From an archaeon (GTDB lineage: Archaea > EX4484-52 > B79-G9): a stretch of DNA of 31,829 nucleotides. Where the stretch lies: assembly GCA_043813875.1 (NCBI GenBank), contig JBDRKP010000064.1, positions 1 to 31,829 of the forward strand, given 5' to 3'. This document shows positions 3,001-9,000 of this stretch, piece after piece. Position numbers: made by a program. How positions within the stretch are numbered: the first letter of the stretch is position 1; every line of letters begins with the position of its first letter.

Positions 3001-6000
3001 ACGAACTTTGGCAGAAAGAATGAAAGATCCGGAAGACGAATTAAAATTAGTTATCGTGCGAGATATGTGGCTTACTGGTTTCGATGGTCCGTGCCTGCAC
3101 ACGATGTATATAGATAAGCCCATGAAAGGCCATACCCTTATGCAGGCAATTGCACGGGTGAACAGAGTCTATAAAGACAAGCCAGGCGGATTAGTTGTTG
3201 ATTATCTTGGAATTGCGTCCGATTTGAAAGAAGCGTTATCATTTTATTCAGATAGCGGTGGGAAAGGTGATCCTGCTGTTCTTCAGGAAAAAGCAGTTCA
3301 GATGATGCATGAAAAATTAGAAATTGTTTCCCAGATGTTTCATGGTTTTTCCTATGATCATTACTTTACAGCAGACACATCAACAAAGCTATCAATAATA
3401 CTCGCTGCACAAGAGCATATACTTGGCCTTGAAAATGGCAAGAAACGTTATATTGATGAAGTGACAGCATTGTCAAGCGCATTTTCTATCGCCATTCCGC
3501 ACGAGCAGGCAATGGATGTGAAGGATACAGTTTCGTTCTATCAGGCGGTAAAGGCCCGGCTTGTAAAATTTGACAGCACTGGAACAGGCAAAACCAACGA
3601 CGAAATTGAAACCGCAATCAGGCAAGTTATCGATCAGGCACTTGTAACTGAAAAAGTGATAGACGTGTTTGATGCCGCAGGAATTAAAAAACCGGACATT
3701 TCCATATTATCAGAAGAATTTCTTTTAGAAGTCCAAAACATGGAACACAAAAATATCGCTCTGGAAGTTCTAAAAAAGTTGCTCAATGATGAAATTAAAG
3801 CCAGAGTAAAGAAGAATCTGGTTCAAAGTCGAACATTGATGGAAATGCTCGAAGATTCTATTCAGAAGTATCACAACAAGATCATTACAGCAGTAGAAGT
3901 AATAGATAAACTGATTGAACTTGGTAAAGAGATAAAGAGGATGGACAAAGAGCCGCATGAAATGGGTTTGTCCGATTTTGAATACGCTTTTTATACCGCT
4001 ATTGCGGATAATGATGGCGCCAGAGAACTGATGCAAAAAGAAACATTGCGGGAATTGGCTGTTGTTTTATTTGAAAAGGTGAAACAAAATGCATCGATCG
4101 ATTGGACAATAAAGGAAAGCGTCAGGGCAAAATTAAAAGTAATTGTAAAACGTACATTAAGACAATATGGTTATCCTCCTGATATGCAGGCACTTGCAAC
4201 AGAAACAGTGCTAAAGCAGGCGGAATTGATTGCAGATGAAATAACCCGTAGAGGATAGAGGATGAGGGCGTATAATATCTTCACTTTAAATAGAACAGCA
4301 CACAGAATCTAAGACAAAACTATCGCTATATGATGATTTTTGGAGACTAAAACATCACAGCACTTTGCTTTGTGCCGCGATGCGCTCTCGCGTCGCTTTA
4401 TGTAGTCGTTTTGTTAAATCCTTGCGGGAACTCCAGATCGCTGCGAAACATTTATTATGAATAAGGTCAAAAAACTCGAAAAAGAGATTGATGCTATTTC
4501 TCACTTACGCAAAATCCATCCAAAACCTATTTAATATTTTGTCCAGTTCTAAACATTAAGCTGATTTTATGGGTATATTCAAGGGAAGAATTCTGCGCGT
4601 CGACCTCACGAAAAAAAATATAAGCGAGGAATATGCCGCCCCCAAAGACATACTAAGATACATCGGCGGCCGTGGCCTTGCAGCAAAAATACTCATCGAC
4701 GAACTCGACCCGAAAACAGATCCTCTTTCTGAAAAGAACATGATAATTCTCATGGCAGGCCCCCTGACAGGCCTTGCCCCAGCCTCAGGAAGATGCTCAT
4801 TCACGTCAAAATCCCCGCTTACCGGCACCATATTCGACTCGAACGTCGGCGGCTCCCTGGGTTATGAATTAAGAAAGACAGGCTACGACGGCGTCATAAT
4901 CACAGGCAGATCAGACACGCCTCTCTACCTTGAGATAACAGACAACAAGGCCGAGCTCAAAGACGCCAAACATCTCTGGACAAAGACCACAACAGAAACC
5001 ACAGAGCTCCTGGCCAAAGACAAATTCAAGGTCGCATGCATCGGTCCGGCAGGAGAGAATCTCGTATTATACTCATCGATAATCATAGACAGAAGCCGCG
5101 CAGCCGGCCGTGGGGGTCTTGGCGCAGTGCTCGGCTCAAAGAAGCTCAAGGCAATCGCCCTCAAAGGCACGCAAAAGATAGAGCCCGCAAACGAGTTCGC
5201 ATTCAGCGAACAGAAAAAACGCTTCCTTGAGATAATAAGAGGCCATCCGGTGACAGGAGACTCGCTCGGTCGTTTCGGCACCCTCGTTCTCATGAACCCC
5301 GTAAACAAGCACGGGATACTCCCCATAAACAACTTCCAGAAAGGCTTCTATGACAACGTGGAAAACATATCCGGCGAGACCATGCAGAAATACCTCACAA
5401 AAAAGACAGGATGCGCCCTCTGCCCCATAATGTGCGGAAGAGACGCTAACGTCGAAGGCGTAAAGACCCACGGTCCTGAATACGAAAGCACCTGGGCGCT
5501 CACAGTTCAGTGCGGTCACTCCGACGCAAAGACACTCGCCATCGCAAACAACCTCTGCAATGAATTAGGCCTTGACACCATAACCACAGGCAGCACAATC
5601 GGCTTTGCCATGGAATGCTCAGATAAAGGCCTCATCAAAGAAAAAATAACCTTCGGCGACACGAAAATAATCCCGGAACTCATAGAAAAGATCGCATACA
5701 AAAAAGACATCGGCGCACTCCTTTCAGAAGGCACCAAACGCATGGGAAAAAAACTGGGCGCAACCGACTTCGCGATAAACGTCAAAGGCCTCGAAATACC
5801 GGCATACGACCCACGCGGCGTAAAAGGCCAGGCATTGTCATACATGACATCAAACAGGGGCGGCTGCCACTTAAGAGCATACATGATCCCGCAGGAAGTG
5901 CTCTCCTCACCAAGATACTTAGACAACCTTGAGCTTGAGGACAAGGCAAGAAAGGTCCGCGACATCGAGAACATATTCGCAGTCATGGACTCGCTTGTCA

Positions 6001-9000
6001 TGTGCAAATTCACAACGATCGCAGTATTCGAGACATTCGACTACGAGATAGACATCTACGCAAGGATGCTCACGACCGCGACCGGCATGTACTTCGACGA
6101 AAAGGAGCTAAAGAAAGCAGGCGAGCGCATCTGGAACCTGGAGCGCCTCTTCAACACGAGAGCCGGCTTCACAAAAGAAGATGACCGGCTGCCGAAACGA
6201 TTTGAAGAGCCGATGCCGGAAGGCCCCGCAGAAGGCGAGACCGCAAAGATGGACAGTCTTCTCAGTGAATACTACACTCTCCGCGGCTGGGACGCATCAG
6301 GCATCCCGGAAGAGAAAAAACTGACAGCACTCAGCATAGATTTTGAAGAATCATGGCCGAAAAAGATAGTCTCTCTCAATCACGAATCACTGGAAGATGC
6401 CATATCAGACGCCAAAAAGAACCTCAAAAGCGGCGACTGGATAGAAGTGGCGTCCCCGCTCGTAAAAAGCCAGGGCGTCAACGCGATAATAGCGCTCAGG
6501 GCACTCTACCCTTACAAGACCATAATCGCAGACTACAAGACAATGGACACAGGATACCTAGAAGTCGAGATAGCGGCCCAGGCAGGCGCAGACATAGTCA
6601 CCATCTCAAGCCATGCAGGCAACCATACGATAATCGATGCCATCGGCGCAGCAAAGAAATACGGCGCAAAGATAATGATAGACCTCTTCGACGACATCAC
6701 GCGCGCAAAAGAAGTCGAGAAGCTCGGCGTGGACTACATCCGTGTATTCAAAAACGACATAATCGAAAAGCTTTCAAAAGAGATGAAGATACCGGTCGCA
6801 TCATTCATAGCATCAAAGCATGCAAAGCTGGCAGTCGAATCCTTCATCGACAAGGAACCTAAGGCGACAAAAAGAACAAAGACACCCGAGTTAGAGGGCA
6901 TCTGGCCGAAGCTCCAGGTAGCGCTTGACTTAAGGAACCTGAAAGAGGCCCTGAAGCTTGCCCGCGGCGCAAAAGAAGGCGGCGCACACTGGCTCGAAGT
7001 AGGGACGCCGCTGGTGAAAAGCGCAGGCATGGACGCGGTAAGAGAGATAAGAAAAGAGCACCCTGATTGCACCATCGTGGCTGACTTGAAGACATTAAGG
7101 AACGGCGGAAAAGAGGTCGCAATAGCGGCGCGTGCAGGCGCAGACATAATCGGCATCTGCGGCGCATCAGAGAACAGCATAATAAAAGACGCGATAAGGG
7201 CGGCAAAAGATTATAACGTGAAGATAATGGCTGACCTGATAGCAATAAAAGATCCTGTAGCCCGCGCAAAAGAGCTTGAAGACATGGGCGCAGACTACAT
7301 AGAATTCCATATTTCAGTCGACGAGCAGATGCGAAGCGGCAACGCGAAGATTCCGTTCCCTCTGGTCGAAAGCGTAGCAAAAGCCATAACGATACCGATG
7401 GGCGTCGCAGGCGGCATGAGAGCAGACACAGCGCCGCTCGCGATAAAGTCCGGCGCAAAGATTGCGGTAGTCGGCGGCTCTATAACGCGCGCAGCAGACC
7501 CGAAAAAAGCTTCGATAGTTATCCTGAAGGCCATCGGCAGATGATTTCTTATCATTGAAAATGATCGAGAACCTTTACGATCATGCATTACTATGGTCAT
7601 CATATGAAGCGAAAAATAAATTCCCTCTTCTCTGAAAGGAGACTTATACTGGATTCCAGCATGGTCTTTTCTGCAAGTTTTATCGGCGCAATCTTCATGT
7701 TCGCATCAAGCGTCGCACTGTCGCGCATCTTCAGCCCGGAGATTTTCGGCAACTACAAGACGCTGGTCAATCTTTTTCTCTTCATTCCCGCGCTTCTTGA
7801 TTTCGGCGCATCCCCCACACTCACCAGATATATCGCCGGATTCATGGCAAAAAAAGAGGAAGGAAAGATCAACCGCATGATCCGGTTTTTCCTGAAGATC
7901 AAAGGGATATCGGTCCTTTCTGTATCTCTCATGATATATCTGTCTCGCGATGCCTTTGCAGGCACATTTTTGAAGGACTCTTCTCTCTCATACCTGATAG
8001 TGCCCGGCCTCCTGCTCTCAGTTTCCTTTTTATTTGACCTCACCAAGCCGGTGATATCGGGCCTGCAGGATTTCAGGCTTCTATCATTCTCGAATTTCCT
8101 CACTACAGCATGCATAGGGATATTCAGCATAGTGCTCGGCTATTATTACGGCGTCTATTACGCCCTGTTGGGCTGGTCGCTTGCTTATTTTGCAGGGAAC
8201 CTGCCCAATATTTATCATATATCGAAAAGACGGCTCTTCAGCAAAAACTCACTATCATTGGATATCGGCCCTATCTTCAGAAGCTATGCTCTTCCGATGC
8301 AGATGATGATGATATTGAACACATCAAGTCTGGCCGTGATTCCGGTCCTGAGCCTCTTCTTTGCCCAGAAGCTGATAGGATACTACGGCTTTGCATGGAC
8401 ATTTTACAGCGGGATAATGCTTGTCCCCATAACCTTTTCTCAGGTGCTTTTCCCTAAAGTAAGCGAGCTTAAGGCGAATAATAAAGCCACAAGAAGCTCC
8501 ATAGTCAGTATACTGGCTGTATACACGCTTATCGTACTGACAGGTGTTACGGCAATACATCTGTTCTCCCCCGAGATAATATCGCTTGTATCCGCAGCAT
8601 ATCTTCCGGGCCTCCATATATTCAGGTGGCTGAACATCGCCGGCCTGTTGCTTGGCTATCTGTTCATATACGCGAACTATCTGAGCGCAAAAGGCAGTAT
8701 AAGAAGCGCATCGATTGTCTTTTTTGTTATGAATATGGCGCTGTTTGCTGTGAGTTTTGCATTGCTTTTCAGTTGGGCATAAACTTCCATATCCATATCA
8801 TTCTATTTGAATATACTTTATCCAAAAATACCATGGAATCATATTTTGATACAGACTCAATCGGCATCAAGAAATGAGGTGCATTAAGTATATCCAGTCC
8901 CCTTGTAAGCGAATGTTTCGATATTATAAAATAGTCTGTATTTTTTTCTCTAAATTCATCGTAAATCTCGCTTTCATCCGGGGTATAATATAACGCATTG

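Follow-up and report, generated by a model that had tools for sequence, protein, structure and literature searches.

An archaeal aldehyde:ferredoxin oxidoreductase fused to 3-hexulose-6-phosphate synthase, a candidate formaldehyde-oxidising enzyme of the reverse ribulose monophosphate pathway

Methanogens and other archaea that use H4MPT possess a fusion of HPS, the synthase of 3-hexulose-6-phosphate, with the formaldehyde-consuming enzyme Fae (Fae-HPS; PRK13307). In the parts of the source drawn on here, its authors write that this protein 'might immediately capture formaldehyde', and a role of the reverse ribulose monophosphate (RuMP) pathway in the supply of ribose-5-phosphate is proposed (PMC5241800). 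The fusion described here, in which HPS follows an aldehyde:ferredoxin oxidoreductase (AOR), resembles Fae-HPS in that HPS is joined to a putative consumer of formaldehyde. However, in Fae-HPS the N-terminal partner is Fae, which depends on H4MPT and acts without a redox step, whereas HPS is here preceded by a presumed tungstopterin/[4Fe-4S] oxidoreductase of 590 aa, whose products would be formate and reduced ferredoxin. Fae (PF08714) was found neither in the 991-aa protein nor in the genome encoding it (G000), and the only one of 42 genomes of the phylum that contains Fae (G018, as a 413-aa Fae-HPS frame) lacks AOR-HPS.

With AORs in the strict sense (1aor, 9g7j, 9mqx) the fusion shares the cluster cysteines and the Glu and His residues near the metal site, but it differs from them by about 400 additional C-terminal residues that form two barrels, by its separate clade and by an insertion after C479. 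Moreover, the solved AORs stand alone or are accompanied by electron-transfer subunits, unlike the fusion. The C-terminal barrel has the motifs of HPS (3ajx, 9lj9; TIGR03128), which together with its fusions HPS-PHI and HPS-RraA/MenG is another of the nearest known systems. A literature search retrieved no paper that describes an AOR-HPS fusion.

Architecture of the fusion and its AOR module

The window, that is the whole 31,829-nucleotide stretch of DNA analysed here, carries at 4569..7544 (+ strand, including the stop codon) an uninterrupted ATG-to-stop reading frame of 991 codons for amino acids, opposite to which stops are abundant. Frame, Pfam and solved-structure matches establish a three-part architecture, in which residues 6-590 form an AOR-type module, residues 593-776 an HPS-like barrel that is degenerate and residues 777-991 an HPS barrel, and confirm the survey's finding that AOR and HPS are joined on one chain. 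Pfam OMPdecase matches the protein in two stretches, the best at residues 780-981 (7.6e-48); the second HPS-like stretch is matched as UlaD-like at 597-721 and by TIGR03128 positions 5-132 at nucleotides 6375-6749. The gene is flanked by a type I restriction gene on one side and a glycosyltransferase cluster on the other, and no conserved operon tying the fusion to PHI or nucleotide genes was seen in the window or in the other fusion neighbourhoods examined. A full-length AlphaFold2 model (pTM 0.56; pLDDT below 50 in the AOR stretches 208-291 and 390-490) is too poor to tell how the active sites of AOR and HPS are placed relative to each other.

Within the AOR module, AFOR_N (residues 6-201; 4584..5171, + strand; PF02730, 1.7e-76, model 1-199 of 199) and AFOR_C, which comprises AOR domains 2 and 3 (residues 217-590; 5217..6338, + strand; PF01314, 5e-136, model 4-385 of 385), are both full length and far above the Pfam cut-offs. 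A second search placed AFOR_C at identical coordinates. The C-x2-C-x3-C motif (C282, C285 and C289; 5412..5435, + strand) and C479 align with CxxCxxxC...C of 1aor, E304/E306 and H434 likewise align with their 1aor counterparts, and all these residues are invariant in 31/31 fused proteins. From the 1AOR literature we take the four cysteines to be the [4Fe-4S] ligands, and E304/E306 and H434 presumably correspond to the conserved metal-site Glu and His. Two MoeA genes are present in the genome, which is 91.5% complete.

Structures of AOR (9g7j, 9mqx, 1aor) align end to end with residues 4-591 at 510-519 bits, whereas formaldehyde:ferredoxin oxidoreductase (FOR; 1b25) scores 355-357 bits, so that the module is not closest to 1b25, as members of the FOR subfamily would be. 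It had been noted before that the module is closer to broad-range AORs than to FOR, and this holds (511-519 versus 357 bits); the similarity therefore gives no sign of a preference for formaldehyde, and the lower FOR score does not bear on whether the module can oxidise it. Given this likeness, which is highest to broad-range AORs, the module might be a general aldehyde oxidoreductase, acting for instance on aldehydes derived from amino acids and on a substrate unrelated to HPS, and the fusion might reflect co-regulation, stability or a scaffold for assembly. The fusion is also the sole AOR-type gene of G000, where the other AFOR match is GAPOR-like, and would thus have to take on whatever general AOR function there is. 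Nevertheless, we regard this possibility as improbable, since the module has features that suggest specialisation, namely a clade of its own, the F487-T489 insertion, K247 and E493; the HPS reaction, in addition, involves no aldehyde other than formaldehyde, and other AOR fusions all pair AOR with an aldehyde-making enzyme. The insertion, specific to the fused clade, follows the cluster cysteine C479 directly (I484-E493; 6021..6047, + strand) and appears as a 6-residue gap in the 1aor alignment. Of 75 fused AOR domains, 100% carry F487 and 93% carry T489; both residues lack a counterpart in unfused AORs, where these columns are gapped in 66/66 sequences. K247 and E493 are further features of the fused clade.

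The two HPS barrels and their predicted pairing

The C-terminal barrel (residues 777-991; 6897..7541, + strand) appears as a complete HPS by Pfam, by motifs and by full-length matches to the HPS structures 9lj9 (5.5e-56) and 3ajx (4.2e-37). An alignment with short fused forms and with the other HPS of the genome yielded a motif list composed of the beta-1 Asp, the beta-2 Glu, D-x-K in beta-3, H-x-x-D-x-Q in beta-6, GG in beta-7 and GG-x-I-T in beta-8, which we take to have catalytic or phosphate-binding roles. All are found here (QVALD787, E810-V-G-T-P, D839-L-K841, H914-I-S-V-D918-E-Q, A-G948-G949 and G969-G970-S-I-T), and across the long forms a single motif pattern is established: the complete set occurs once per protein, always in the C-terminal barrel (10/10). 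The earlier description of this domain as complete with its motifs is hence borne out. Its one loss concerns the beta-3 loop (D839-L-K-T-L-R844; 7083..7100, + strand), where D-x-K-x-x-D has its second Asp replaced. An alignment of the 10 long forms has R, R, S, R, S, C, A, S, S and K at this position, while the Asp is present in 63/63 single-HPS forms scored; unlike in HPS, it is missing from the active barrel of the long forms and present only in the degenerate sister barrel. In a genome search with TIGR03128 (cut-off 200 bits), the C-terminal barrel alone scored 184.3 and the middle barrel alone 111.8 bits; the cut-off is exceeded only by both stretches taken together, as in the search with the whole protein (281.6 bits).

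In the middle barrel (residues 593-776; 6345..6896, + strand), the alignment reveals that 10/10 long forms lack the Asp of beta-1, the H-x-x-D-x-Q motif, the GG of beta-7 and beta-8 as a whole, pointing to a catalytically degenerate domain. All ten retain the D-x-K-x-M-D-T-G loop, here D655-Y-K657-T-M-D660 (6531..6548, + strand); D655, K657, M659, D660, T661 and G662 are invariant in 12/12 long-form sequences, and the beta-2 Glu is kept in 7/10. Over residues 590-991, the full-length AlphaFold2 model (pLDDT about 85-93 there) gives the middle barrel 7-8 strands, and together with the alignment it reveals degenerate strands 6 and 7 plus one further strand (723-726, 743-745 and 754-760). Thus, contrary to the survey's statement, this domain continues beyond strand 5; only the Pfam and TIGR profiles end there. 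Likewise, what had been called a truncated HPS is better read, in the light of the motif pattern and the predicted pairing, as the degenerate partner in an intramolecular pseudo-dimer.

Complex prediction for the middle and C-terminal barrels gave an ipSAE of 0.93, as compared to 0.00 for the best of three controls, although this score may mirror the solved homodimers of the HPS/KGPDC type and shows likeness rather than binding. The mark used for such predictions was reached by 116/157 solved complexes and by 2/215 mismatched pairs; contact agreement between runs was at least 89% and partner pLDDT at least 92. At the predicted interface, residues 656-657 and 659-662 of the middle domain, that is its conserved loop, come together with C-terminal residues 787, 789, 914 and 916-919. 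We therefore read the two barrels as a putative intramolecular pseudo-dimer with one composite active site, in which D660 would act in trans and supply the C-terminal site with the Asp that its own D-x-K-x-x-D loop has lost. That the second Asp acts in trans in this suprafamily (OMPDC) was reportedly observed by Wise, Gerlt, Rayment and co-workers; our literature search for such a trans role in the OMPDC suprafamily found no supporting paper. Since D655 and K657 (12/12) and the beta-2 Glu (7/10) are kept even though this model needs none of them, the middle barrel may retain a vestigial metal site or have a different role. In evolutionary terms, an internal HPS duplication would have generated the middle barrel, whose remaining conserved job may be pairing with its C-terminal sister, and we read the long form as an obligate HPS homodimer that apparently turned into a single-chain pseudo-heterodimer. 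By the conservation of its loop, the middle domain appears to be more than a leftover half, an aspect that is new in this analysis.

Distribution and single origin of the fusion

AFOR_C and OMPdecase reside on one chain in 72 of 74 other related clusters. Nine of these have 988-1014 aa, 57 have 803-859 aa, and the remaining six are shorter or partial, which reproduces the earlier count of about 70 fused clusters with 9 long and about 60 short forms; P0073 and P0075 were rejected, as they are not AOR-HPS. The long frame recurs in 10/42 genomes of the phylum, as reported previously (995-1030 aa; one cut at 568), and an eleventh genome (G012) has a fragment of the fusion at a contig end. The AOR-HPS fusion is thus real and recurrent. 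The short forms share the AOR clade and the junction with the long form and differ by having one HPS barrel with intact D-x-K-x-x-D (63/63), so that they presumably dimerise between chains. Their MAG records bear the labels Thermoplasmata, Promethearchaeota, Hodarchaeota, Nezhaarchaeales, Methanomethylicota, Bathyarchaeia and Hadarchaeia.

A tree of AOR domains (FastTree, 103 rows) places 36/37 rows flagged as fused in one clade (support 100), apart from 65 unfused AORs; L097 also falls inside this clade. In a tree of HPS domains (78 rows), the middle domains form one clade (99), as do the C-terminal domains of the long forms (98), and the latter clade is nested (96) among the short forms P0011-P0017. 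By these trees, fusion and duplication are each shown to have a single origin, and the short forms are, on the same phylogenetic grounds, the ancestors of the long form. In the 37th flagged row, L044, AOR is instead joined to a class II aldolase, and this row is placed among unfused AORs of Chloroflexota. AOR is also found fused to Fe-ADH (P0216) and to class III aminotransferase (P0223); all three partners are aldehyde-making.

Metabolic setting and proposed role in the reverse RuMP pathway

The gene content established for G000 includes PHI and RpiB, while transketolase, transaldolase, Fae and Mch were searched for and not found in this 91.5% complete MAG, leaving reverse RuMP as the only pentose route detected. 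Formate dehydrogenase (Fdh-alpha), PFL and a PurN-type formyltransferase were likewise not found there, and the purine enzymes PurT (438.8 versus a curated cut-off of 339) and PurP (two copies) are formate-dependent. Because a second HPS is encoded on C39 as an HPS-RraA-like fusion, the fused copy is not the sole possible source of ribulose-5-phosphate.

We favour, with slightly better than even confidence, a scheme in which reverse RuMP yields ribulose-5-phosphate, while oxidation in situ turns the formaldehyde into formate and reduces ferredoxin; the direction, the AOR substrate, the hand-over of formaldehyde and the fate of formate are what we infer here. That is, PHI, encoded elsewhere in the genome, would convert fructose-6-phosphate to D-arabino-3-hexulose-6-phosphate, which the C-terminal HPS barrel would split into ribulose-5-phosphate and formaldehyde. 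RpiB would then turn ribulose-5-phosphate into ribose-5-phosphate for nucleotides, and the presumed tungstopterin/[4Fe-4S] module at the N-terminus would oxidise formaldehyde to formate on the same protein. This oxidation would pull the otherwise unfavourable HPS cleavage and avoid free formaldehyde, and the formate may feed PurT and PurP.

Both half-reactions are reversible in principle, and the HPS equilibrium lies on the condensation side. With low-potential ferredoxin as the donor, the AOR module might instead reduce formate to formaldehyde, for HPS to trap at once on ribulose-5-phosphate, which would amount to ferredoxin-driven formate assimilation or to pentose-to-hexose conversion for scavenged nucleosides. 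A fusion would be equally helpful in this direction, the small genomes (0.5-2.2 Mb) suggest scavenging, and the neighbours of the fusion in L095 are a double-SIS gene and a fragment of a form III-type RuBisCO, a nucleoside/pentose context. We nonetheless judge this direction unlikely, albeit the least so among the alternatives: as transketolase and transaldolase were not found, ribulose-5-phosphate would not be regenerated, no cycle would arise and de novo pentose would be without a source; neither a formate source nor Fdh was found in G000, where PurT and PurP consume formate; and formate reduction by ferredoxin is uphill (about -530 mV versus -400 to -500 mV).

In the sections consulted of papers on MAGs, RuMP enzymes and AOR have each been proposed as formaldehyde detoxifiers (PMC8065059, PMC11291895). 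The protein could accordingly be a double sink, with HPS fixation and AOR oxidation acting in parallel, and without hand-over, on external or endogenous formaldehyde, the fusion merely co-localising and co-regulating two detoxifying activities; the catalytic motifs of both modules are all intact. This, too, seems to us rather improbable, since fixation needs ribulose-5-phosphate, which G000 can make only via the reverse reaction, and detoxification accounts neither for the lack of any HPS besides the fused one in 4/5 other fusion-bearing genomes nor for the persistence of the fusion in a single AOR clade that spans many archaeal lineages.

Among these five genomes, Fae was found in none (0/5), PHI exceeds its cut-off in three, with near or adjacent SIS proteins in the remaining two, and two have an N-terminal piece of transketolase. 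The survey had proposed a formaldehyde-disposal enzyme of reverse RuMP in archaea without H4MPT. The gene content of G000 is in keeping with the first part; the restriction to archaea without H4MPT is not general, given that G042 (record labelled Bathyarchaeia) carries both Mch and the fusion. Returning to reverse RuMP with in-situ oxidation, our best reading is that AOR-HPS would be the functional counterpart of Fae-HPS in cells that lack Fae. The fusion thus probably allows ribose synthesis without release of toxic formaldehyde.

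The AOR-HPS gene and its family

The gene joining aldehyde:ferredoxin oxidoreductase (AOR) to HPS, the 3-hexulose-6-phosphate synthase, occupies positions 4569–7544 on the forward strand as a single, uninterrupted ATG-to-stop frame of 991 codons, and the reverse strand carries many stops across the same stretch. Pfam places AFOR_N at residues 6–201, AFOR_C at residues 217–590 and OMPdecase at two stretches, the best of which covers residues 780–981. The whole protein scores 281.6 bits against the NCBIfam HPS model TIGR03128 (cut-off 200), and NCBIfam also marks a UlaD-like stretch at residues 597–721. 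In a genome-wide search, the C-terminal HPS stretch alone (nt 6912–7526) reached 184.3 bits against TIGR03128, just below the cut-off, and the middle stretch (nt 6375–6749) 111.8 bits over model positions 5–132. Residues 4–591 align end to end with the solved AORs 9g7j, 9mqx and 1aor (511–519 bits), the structure 1b25 of formaldehyde:ferredoxin oxidoreductase (FOR) being a weaker match (357 bits), and the C-terminal barrel matches the HPS structures 9lj9 (5.5e-56) and 3ajx (4.2e-37). As frame, domain and structure matches agree, the survey's finding of an AOR followed by HPS domains on one chain is correct. Judged by its sequence, the fused protein belongs to the AOR family and does not group with FOR. 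Among the matching sequencing data no RNA entry is listed, and the DNA entries are metagenome contigs with shares of at most 0.34.

With residues 560–991 as query, 74 other protein clusters were recovered, 72 of which combine AFOR_C with OMPdecase in the same chain: nine long forms with two HPS barrels (988–1014 aa), 57 short forms with a single one (803–859 aa) and six shorter or partial sequences. The remaining two are P0075, which has no family, and P0073 (641 aa), a triple fusion uniting HPS with an RraA-like domain plus an AIR carboxylase (AIRC, PurE-like) piece, in which HPS is tied to a purine-synthesis domain. Among the source names are Thermoplasmata, Promethearchaeota, Hodarchaeota, Heimdallarchaeota, Nezhaarchaeales/-ota, Thermoprotei and Methanomethyliaceae; genome-record names add Bathyarchaeia, Methanomethylicota, Methanosuratincola and Hadarchaeia. 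The window's own phylum comprises 42 species genomes of one order (0.5–2.2 Mb each), and ten of these contain the long fused frame (G000, the host, to G005, G007, G013, G015 and G021). In an additional genome, G012, a fragment lies where a contig ends. Of the records with a name, the closest (L021, ~77–79% identical) bears the NCBI label 'Candidatus Nanohalarchaeota archaeon', which we take as a label only. A locus scan by two AOR peptide patterns, whose counts are no measure of prevalence, returned at least 10 fused loci among the matches listed and at least 70 others, nearly all of them unfused AORs. An assembly artefact or frameshift is ruled out as the source of the fusion because the same frame recurs in ten phylum genomes and 72 clusters; the AOR-HPS fusion is real, recurrent and old.

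A FastTree phylogeny of AOR domains (103 rows) puts 36 of 37 fused-flagged rows into a single clade with a support of 100, apart from 65 unfused archaeal and bacterial AORs. The 37th, L044 (8031–10313, +; Chloroflexia-labelled), falls outside and is a fusion of another type, namely of AOR with a class II aldolase (760 aa in all). Within the clade lies a 547-aa AOR lacking the HPS part and with a slightly short AFOR_C, from a Geoglobus-labelled record (L097:144–1787, +), which may reflect secondary loss. The 75 fused AOR domains share a short insertion right after the fourth cluster cysteine, including F487 and T489, where all 66 unfused sequences have gaps; K247, E493 and a few further residues likewise distinguish the two sets. 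When clustered at 50%, the family is left with some four representatives (P0005, P0089, P0090 and P0094) within the top 150 hits. AOR-HPS is a small, coherent family.

No conserved operon surrounds AOR-HPS in the window or in ten other loci. In the window, the gene lies between a glycosyltransferase cluster and, directly upstream, a 344-aa RhuM-family gene followed by an overlapping type I restriction R subunit gene (1112 aa; together 13–4258, +). The window also contains ArsR, DsbD-like and ArsP permease genes (20368–23157), PurB and PurE (23200–25052, −), genes for a 559-aa radical SAM/SPASM protein and then a WYL-domain protein (25416–28203, +), and three ORFs without a Pfam family at E 1e-4 (8769–10253, −, 494 aa; 15172–16455, +, 427 aa; 29590–31305, +, 571 aa). 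At other loci, a ThiS/MoaD-like gene adjoins AOR-HPS (L026 and L027), or the long form is followed at once, with overlap at its end, by a gene of 336 aa (L022:7253–8263 and L018:539–1549), which covers the full Pfam OMPdecase model (5.4e-52) and may encode PyrF or another HPS relative. In a Hadarchaeia-labelled locus (L095), a short AOR-HPS (542–2998) is flanked by a RuBisCO large-subunit gene truncated at the edge of the locus (7–387) and a 399-aa double-SIS gene (3235–4434). In phylum genome G021 (contig C28, locus L105), a 759-aa gene with two OMPdecase stretches and SIS domains, i.e. HPS-like and PHI-like parts (9150–11429, −), lies 4.4 kb away from the long AOR-HPS (1691–4771).

A putative single-chain pseudo-dimer

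The middle domains of the long forms were aligned with the C-terminal domains, the HPS domains of short forms and the host's other HPS, which revealed complementary motif losses in the two barrels. The middle domain of each of the ten long forms lacks the beta-1 Asp (QVALD replaced by SLN, SIF, LIQ, MVE or VVN), the H-x-x-D-x-Q motif, the beta-7 GG and the entire beta-8 GG-x-I-T segment, and in all ten it retains D-x-K-x-M-D-T-G. The C-terminal domain keeps every motif lost from the middle domain, so that each occurs once per long protein; its HPS motif set is present except for the second Asp of D-x-K-x-x-D, which in the ten long forms has given way to R, R, S, R, S, C, A, S, S and K. This Asp is kept by all 63 other proteins scored, P0073 and P0075 being left out. 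HPS is a member of the orotidine-5'-phosphate decarboxylase (OMPDC) suprafamily, whose barrels form obligate dimers in which the beta-3 loop's second Asp enters the partner's active site, a role reportedly described by Wise, Gerlt, Rayment and co-workers. Given this rule, the motif pattern argues that the HPS module of the long form is quite probably a pseudo-dimer within a single chain, whose barrels together make up one composite active site. That is, the degenerate barrel reads as having retained what the active barrel needs from its partner, and the active barrel as having shed what a dead partner cannot use. The literature searched, including the accessible portion of PMC10176493, offered no usable statement on an Asp acting in trans in the OMPDC/KGPDC/HPS dimer.

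We also predicted the complex of the middle (593–776) and C-terminal (777–991) barrels from an alignment of 12 long forms in three runs, alongside three controls. The pairing scored 0.93 in the three runs and the best control 0.00; 116 of 157 solved complexes attained this mark versus 2 of 215 mismatched pairs. Contacts agreed by at least 89% between runs, with partner pLDDT values of at least 92. The predicted interface brings middle residues 656–657 and 659–662 to C-terminal residues 787, 789, 813–814, 914 and 916–919, and on the symmetrical side C-terminal residues 840–845 to middle residues 604 and 606. This prediction may support pairing of the barrels; since homodimers of this family have been solved, the high score may stem from likeness to them and is no proof of binding. 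A full-length AlphaFold2 model from 12 sequences (mean pLDDT 72, pTM 0.56, some AOR stretches below 50) was used solely for barrel secondary structure. For residues 590–991 (pLDDT ~85–93), it gives the middle domain strands 1–7 plus an extra strand at 754–760, which makes it a degenerate barrel and not the half barrel that had been described.

A tree of HPS domains (78 rows) unites the middle domains in one clade (support 99) and the long-form C-terminal domains in another (98), with the same three subgroups in both. The C-terminal clade is nested (96) among the short forms P0011–P0017, one of them Thermoplasmata-labelled; only this clade is placed by the tree, the fast-evolving middle clade taking no firm position. 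The matching subgroups fit a single duplication followed by co-divergence of both barrels. The view that the middle domain is a meaningless remnant is ruled out: it is present in all long forms, co-diverges with the C-terminal domain, and D655, K657, M659, D660, T661 and G662 of its beta-3 loop are invariant in 12 of 12 sequences. Retention of D655 and K657 is unexplained by the pseudo-dimer model, and the beta-2 Glu, which the middle domain keeps in seven of ten long forms, likewise lies outside it; because of this Glu, a residual metal site in the middle domain is possible.

Gene content and the fate of formaldehyde

Many archaea obtain pentoses by the reverse RuMP pathway, which frees one formaldehyde per pentose. 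In organisms with H4MPT, this formaldehyde is thought to be taken up by Fae, often fused to HPS; to our knowledge, its fate in archaea without H4MPT and Fae is not settled. The host genome (1.64 Mb in 90 contigs; 91.5% complete with 0.55% contamination) encodes a stand-alone isomerase partner of HPS (PHI; 192 bits, cut-off 160), RpiB, two MoeA genes, two PurP-family genes and PurT, to which the model for formate-dependent GAR transformylase gives 438.8 bits (cut-off 339). At this completeness, no transketolase, transaldolase, Fae, methenyl-H4MPT cyclohydrolase, formate dehydrogenase alpha subunit, pyruvate formate-lyase, RpiA or PurN-type formyltransferase was found. AOR-HPS is the sole AOR-type gene, the other AFOR match being GAPOR-like. 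A second HPS (contig C39; L001:814–2142, −) is a 442-aa HPS-RraA/MenG-like fusion scoring 561.6 bits against PRK07028, slightly below the cut-off of 593; the accessible part of PMC5241800 reports low HPS activity for a fusion of the HPS-RraA type in Methanospirillum.

Across the 42 phylum genomes, PHI exceeds the cut-off in 14, among them seven of the ten fusion carriers, and Fae occurs in one (G018, within a 413-aa Fae-HPS frame), which lacks AOR-HPS. None of five other fusion-bearing genomes, recorded as Bathyarchaeia, Nitrososphaerota, Methanomethylicota, Methanosuratincola and Hadarchaeia, yielded Fae; a transketolase N-terminal piece is present in two and Mch in one. PHI is above the cut-off in three of the five and near it in a fourth, the fifth having a double-SIS protein adjoining the fusion, and in four the fused HPS is the only one.

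Because no other pentose route was detected in the host, a reverse RuMP pathway whose formaldehyde is oxidised in situ by the fused AOR is the best reading, one that we favour with some reserve. PHI would turn fructose 6-phosphate into hexulose 6-phosphate, the C-terminal barrel, completed by D660, would cleave the latter to ribulose 5-phosphate and formaldehyde, and the AOR module would convert formaldehyde and water to formate, reducing two ferredoxins. Oxidation of formaldehyde to formate with ferredoxin is strongly exergonic and would drive the unfavourable cleavage. The formate could pass to PurT and PurP, so that, judging from gene content, one hexose could give a purine nucleotide its ribose as well as a C1 unit. 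Conversely, AOR-HPS might run backwards, reducing formate and fixing the product by HPS, which appears unlikely. We see an equally slim chance that the enzyme is reversible in vivo, AOR-made formaldehyde staying on the protein and joining ribulose 5-phosphate to give hexulose phosphate in a ferredoxin-driven fixation of formate. Formaldehyde is the only aldehyde of the HPS reaction; that the AOR acts on a substrate unrelated to HPS is improbable, and it is equally improbable that HPS and AOR are parallel sinks, both consuming formaldehyde.

Relation to known fusions and implications

Fae-HPS provides a published precedent, as it likewise fuses HPS to a formaldehyde consumer, and its authors propose, in the accessible part of PMC5241800, that it 'might immediately capture formaldehyde'. 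AOR-HPS is no Fae-HPS, yet it probably works like one. AORs are also fused to other aldehyde makers: besides the class II aldolase, these are an Fe-alcohol dehydrogenase (P0216, 1026 aa) and a class III aminotransferase (P0223, 1054 aa). P0193 (853 aa) joins AOR to a 4Fe-4S ferredoxin domain. The full texts searched, a scope excluding supplements and most subscription journals, describe no AOR-HPS fusion. The enzymes and the fusion logic are known; AOR as a partner of HPS and the putative single-chain pseudo-dimer are new.

In the long form, a barrel enzyme that is otherwise an obligate homodimer would have become, in nature, a pseudo-dimer on one chain, with catalytic residues split over an active and a degenerate barrel. 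A tungsten enzyme treating formaldehyde in situ beside a C–C lyase would be relevant to engineered C1 pathways. Should the enzyme instead fix formate, it would be a natural match to synthetic formate-to-formaldehyde-to-RuMP routes, and small-genome archaea could make hexoses from scavenged pentoses and formate. AOR-HPS forms one clade over Asgard-, Thermoplasmata-, Bathyarchaeia-, Methanomethylicota- and Hadarchaeia-labelled records and a small-genome phylum. In the preferred reading, oxidation in situ, it would offer an assayable answer to what becomes of formaldehyde in Fae-lacking archaea that use the reverse RuMP pathway, and it predicts an energy gain as reduced ferredoxin together with formate for formate-dependent purine synthesis.
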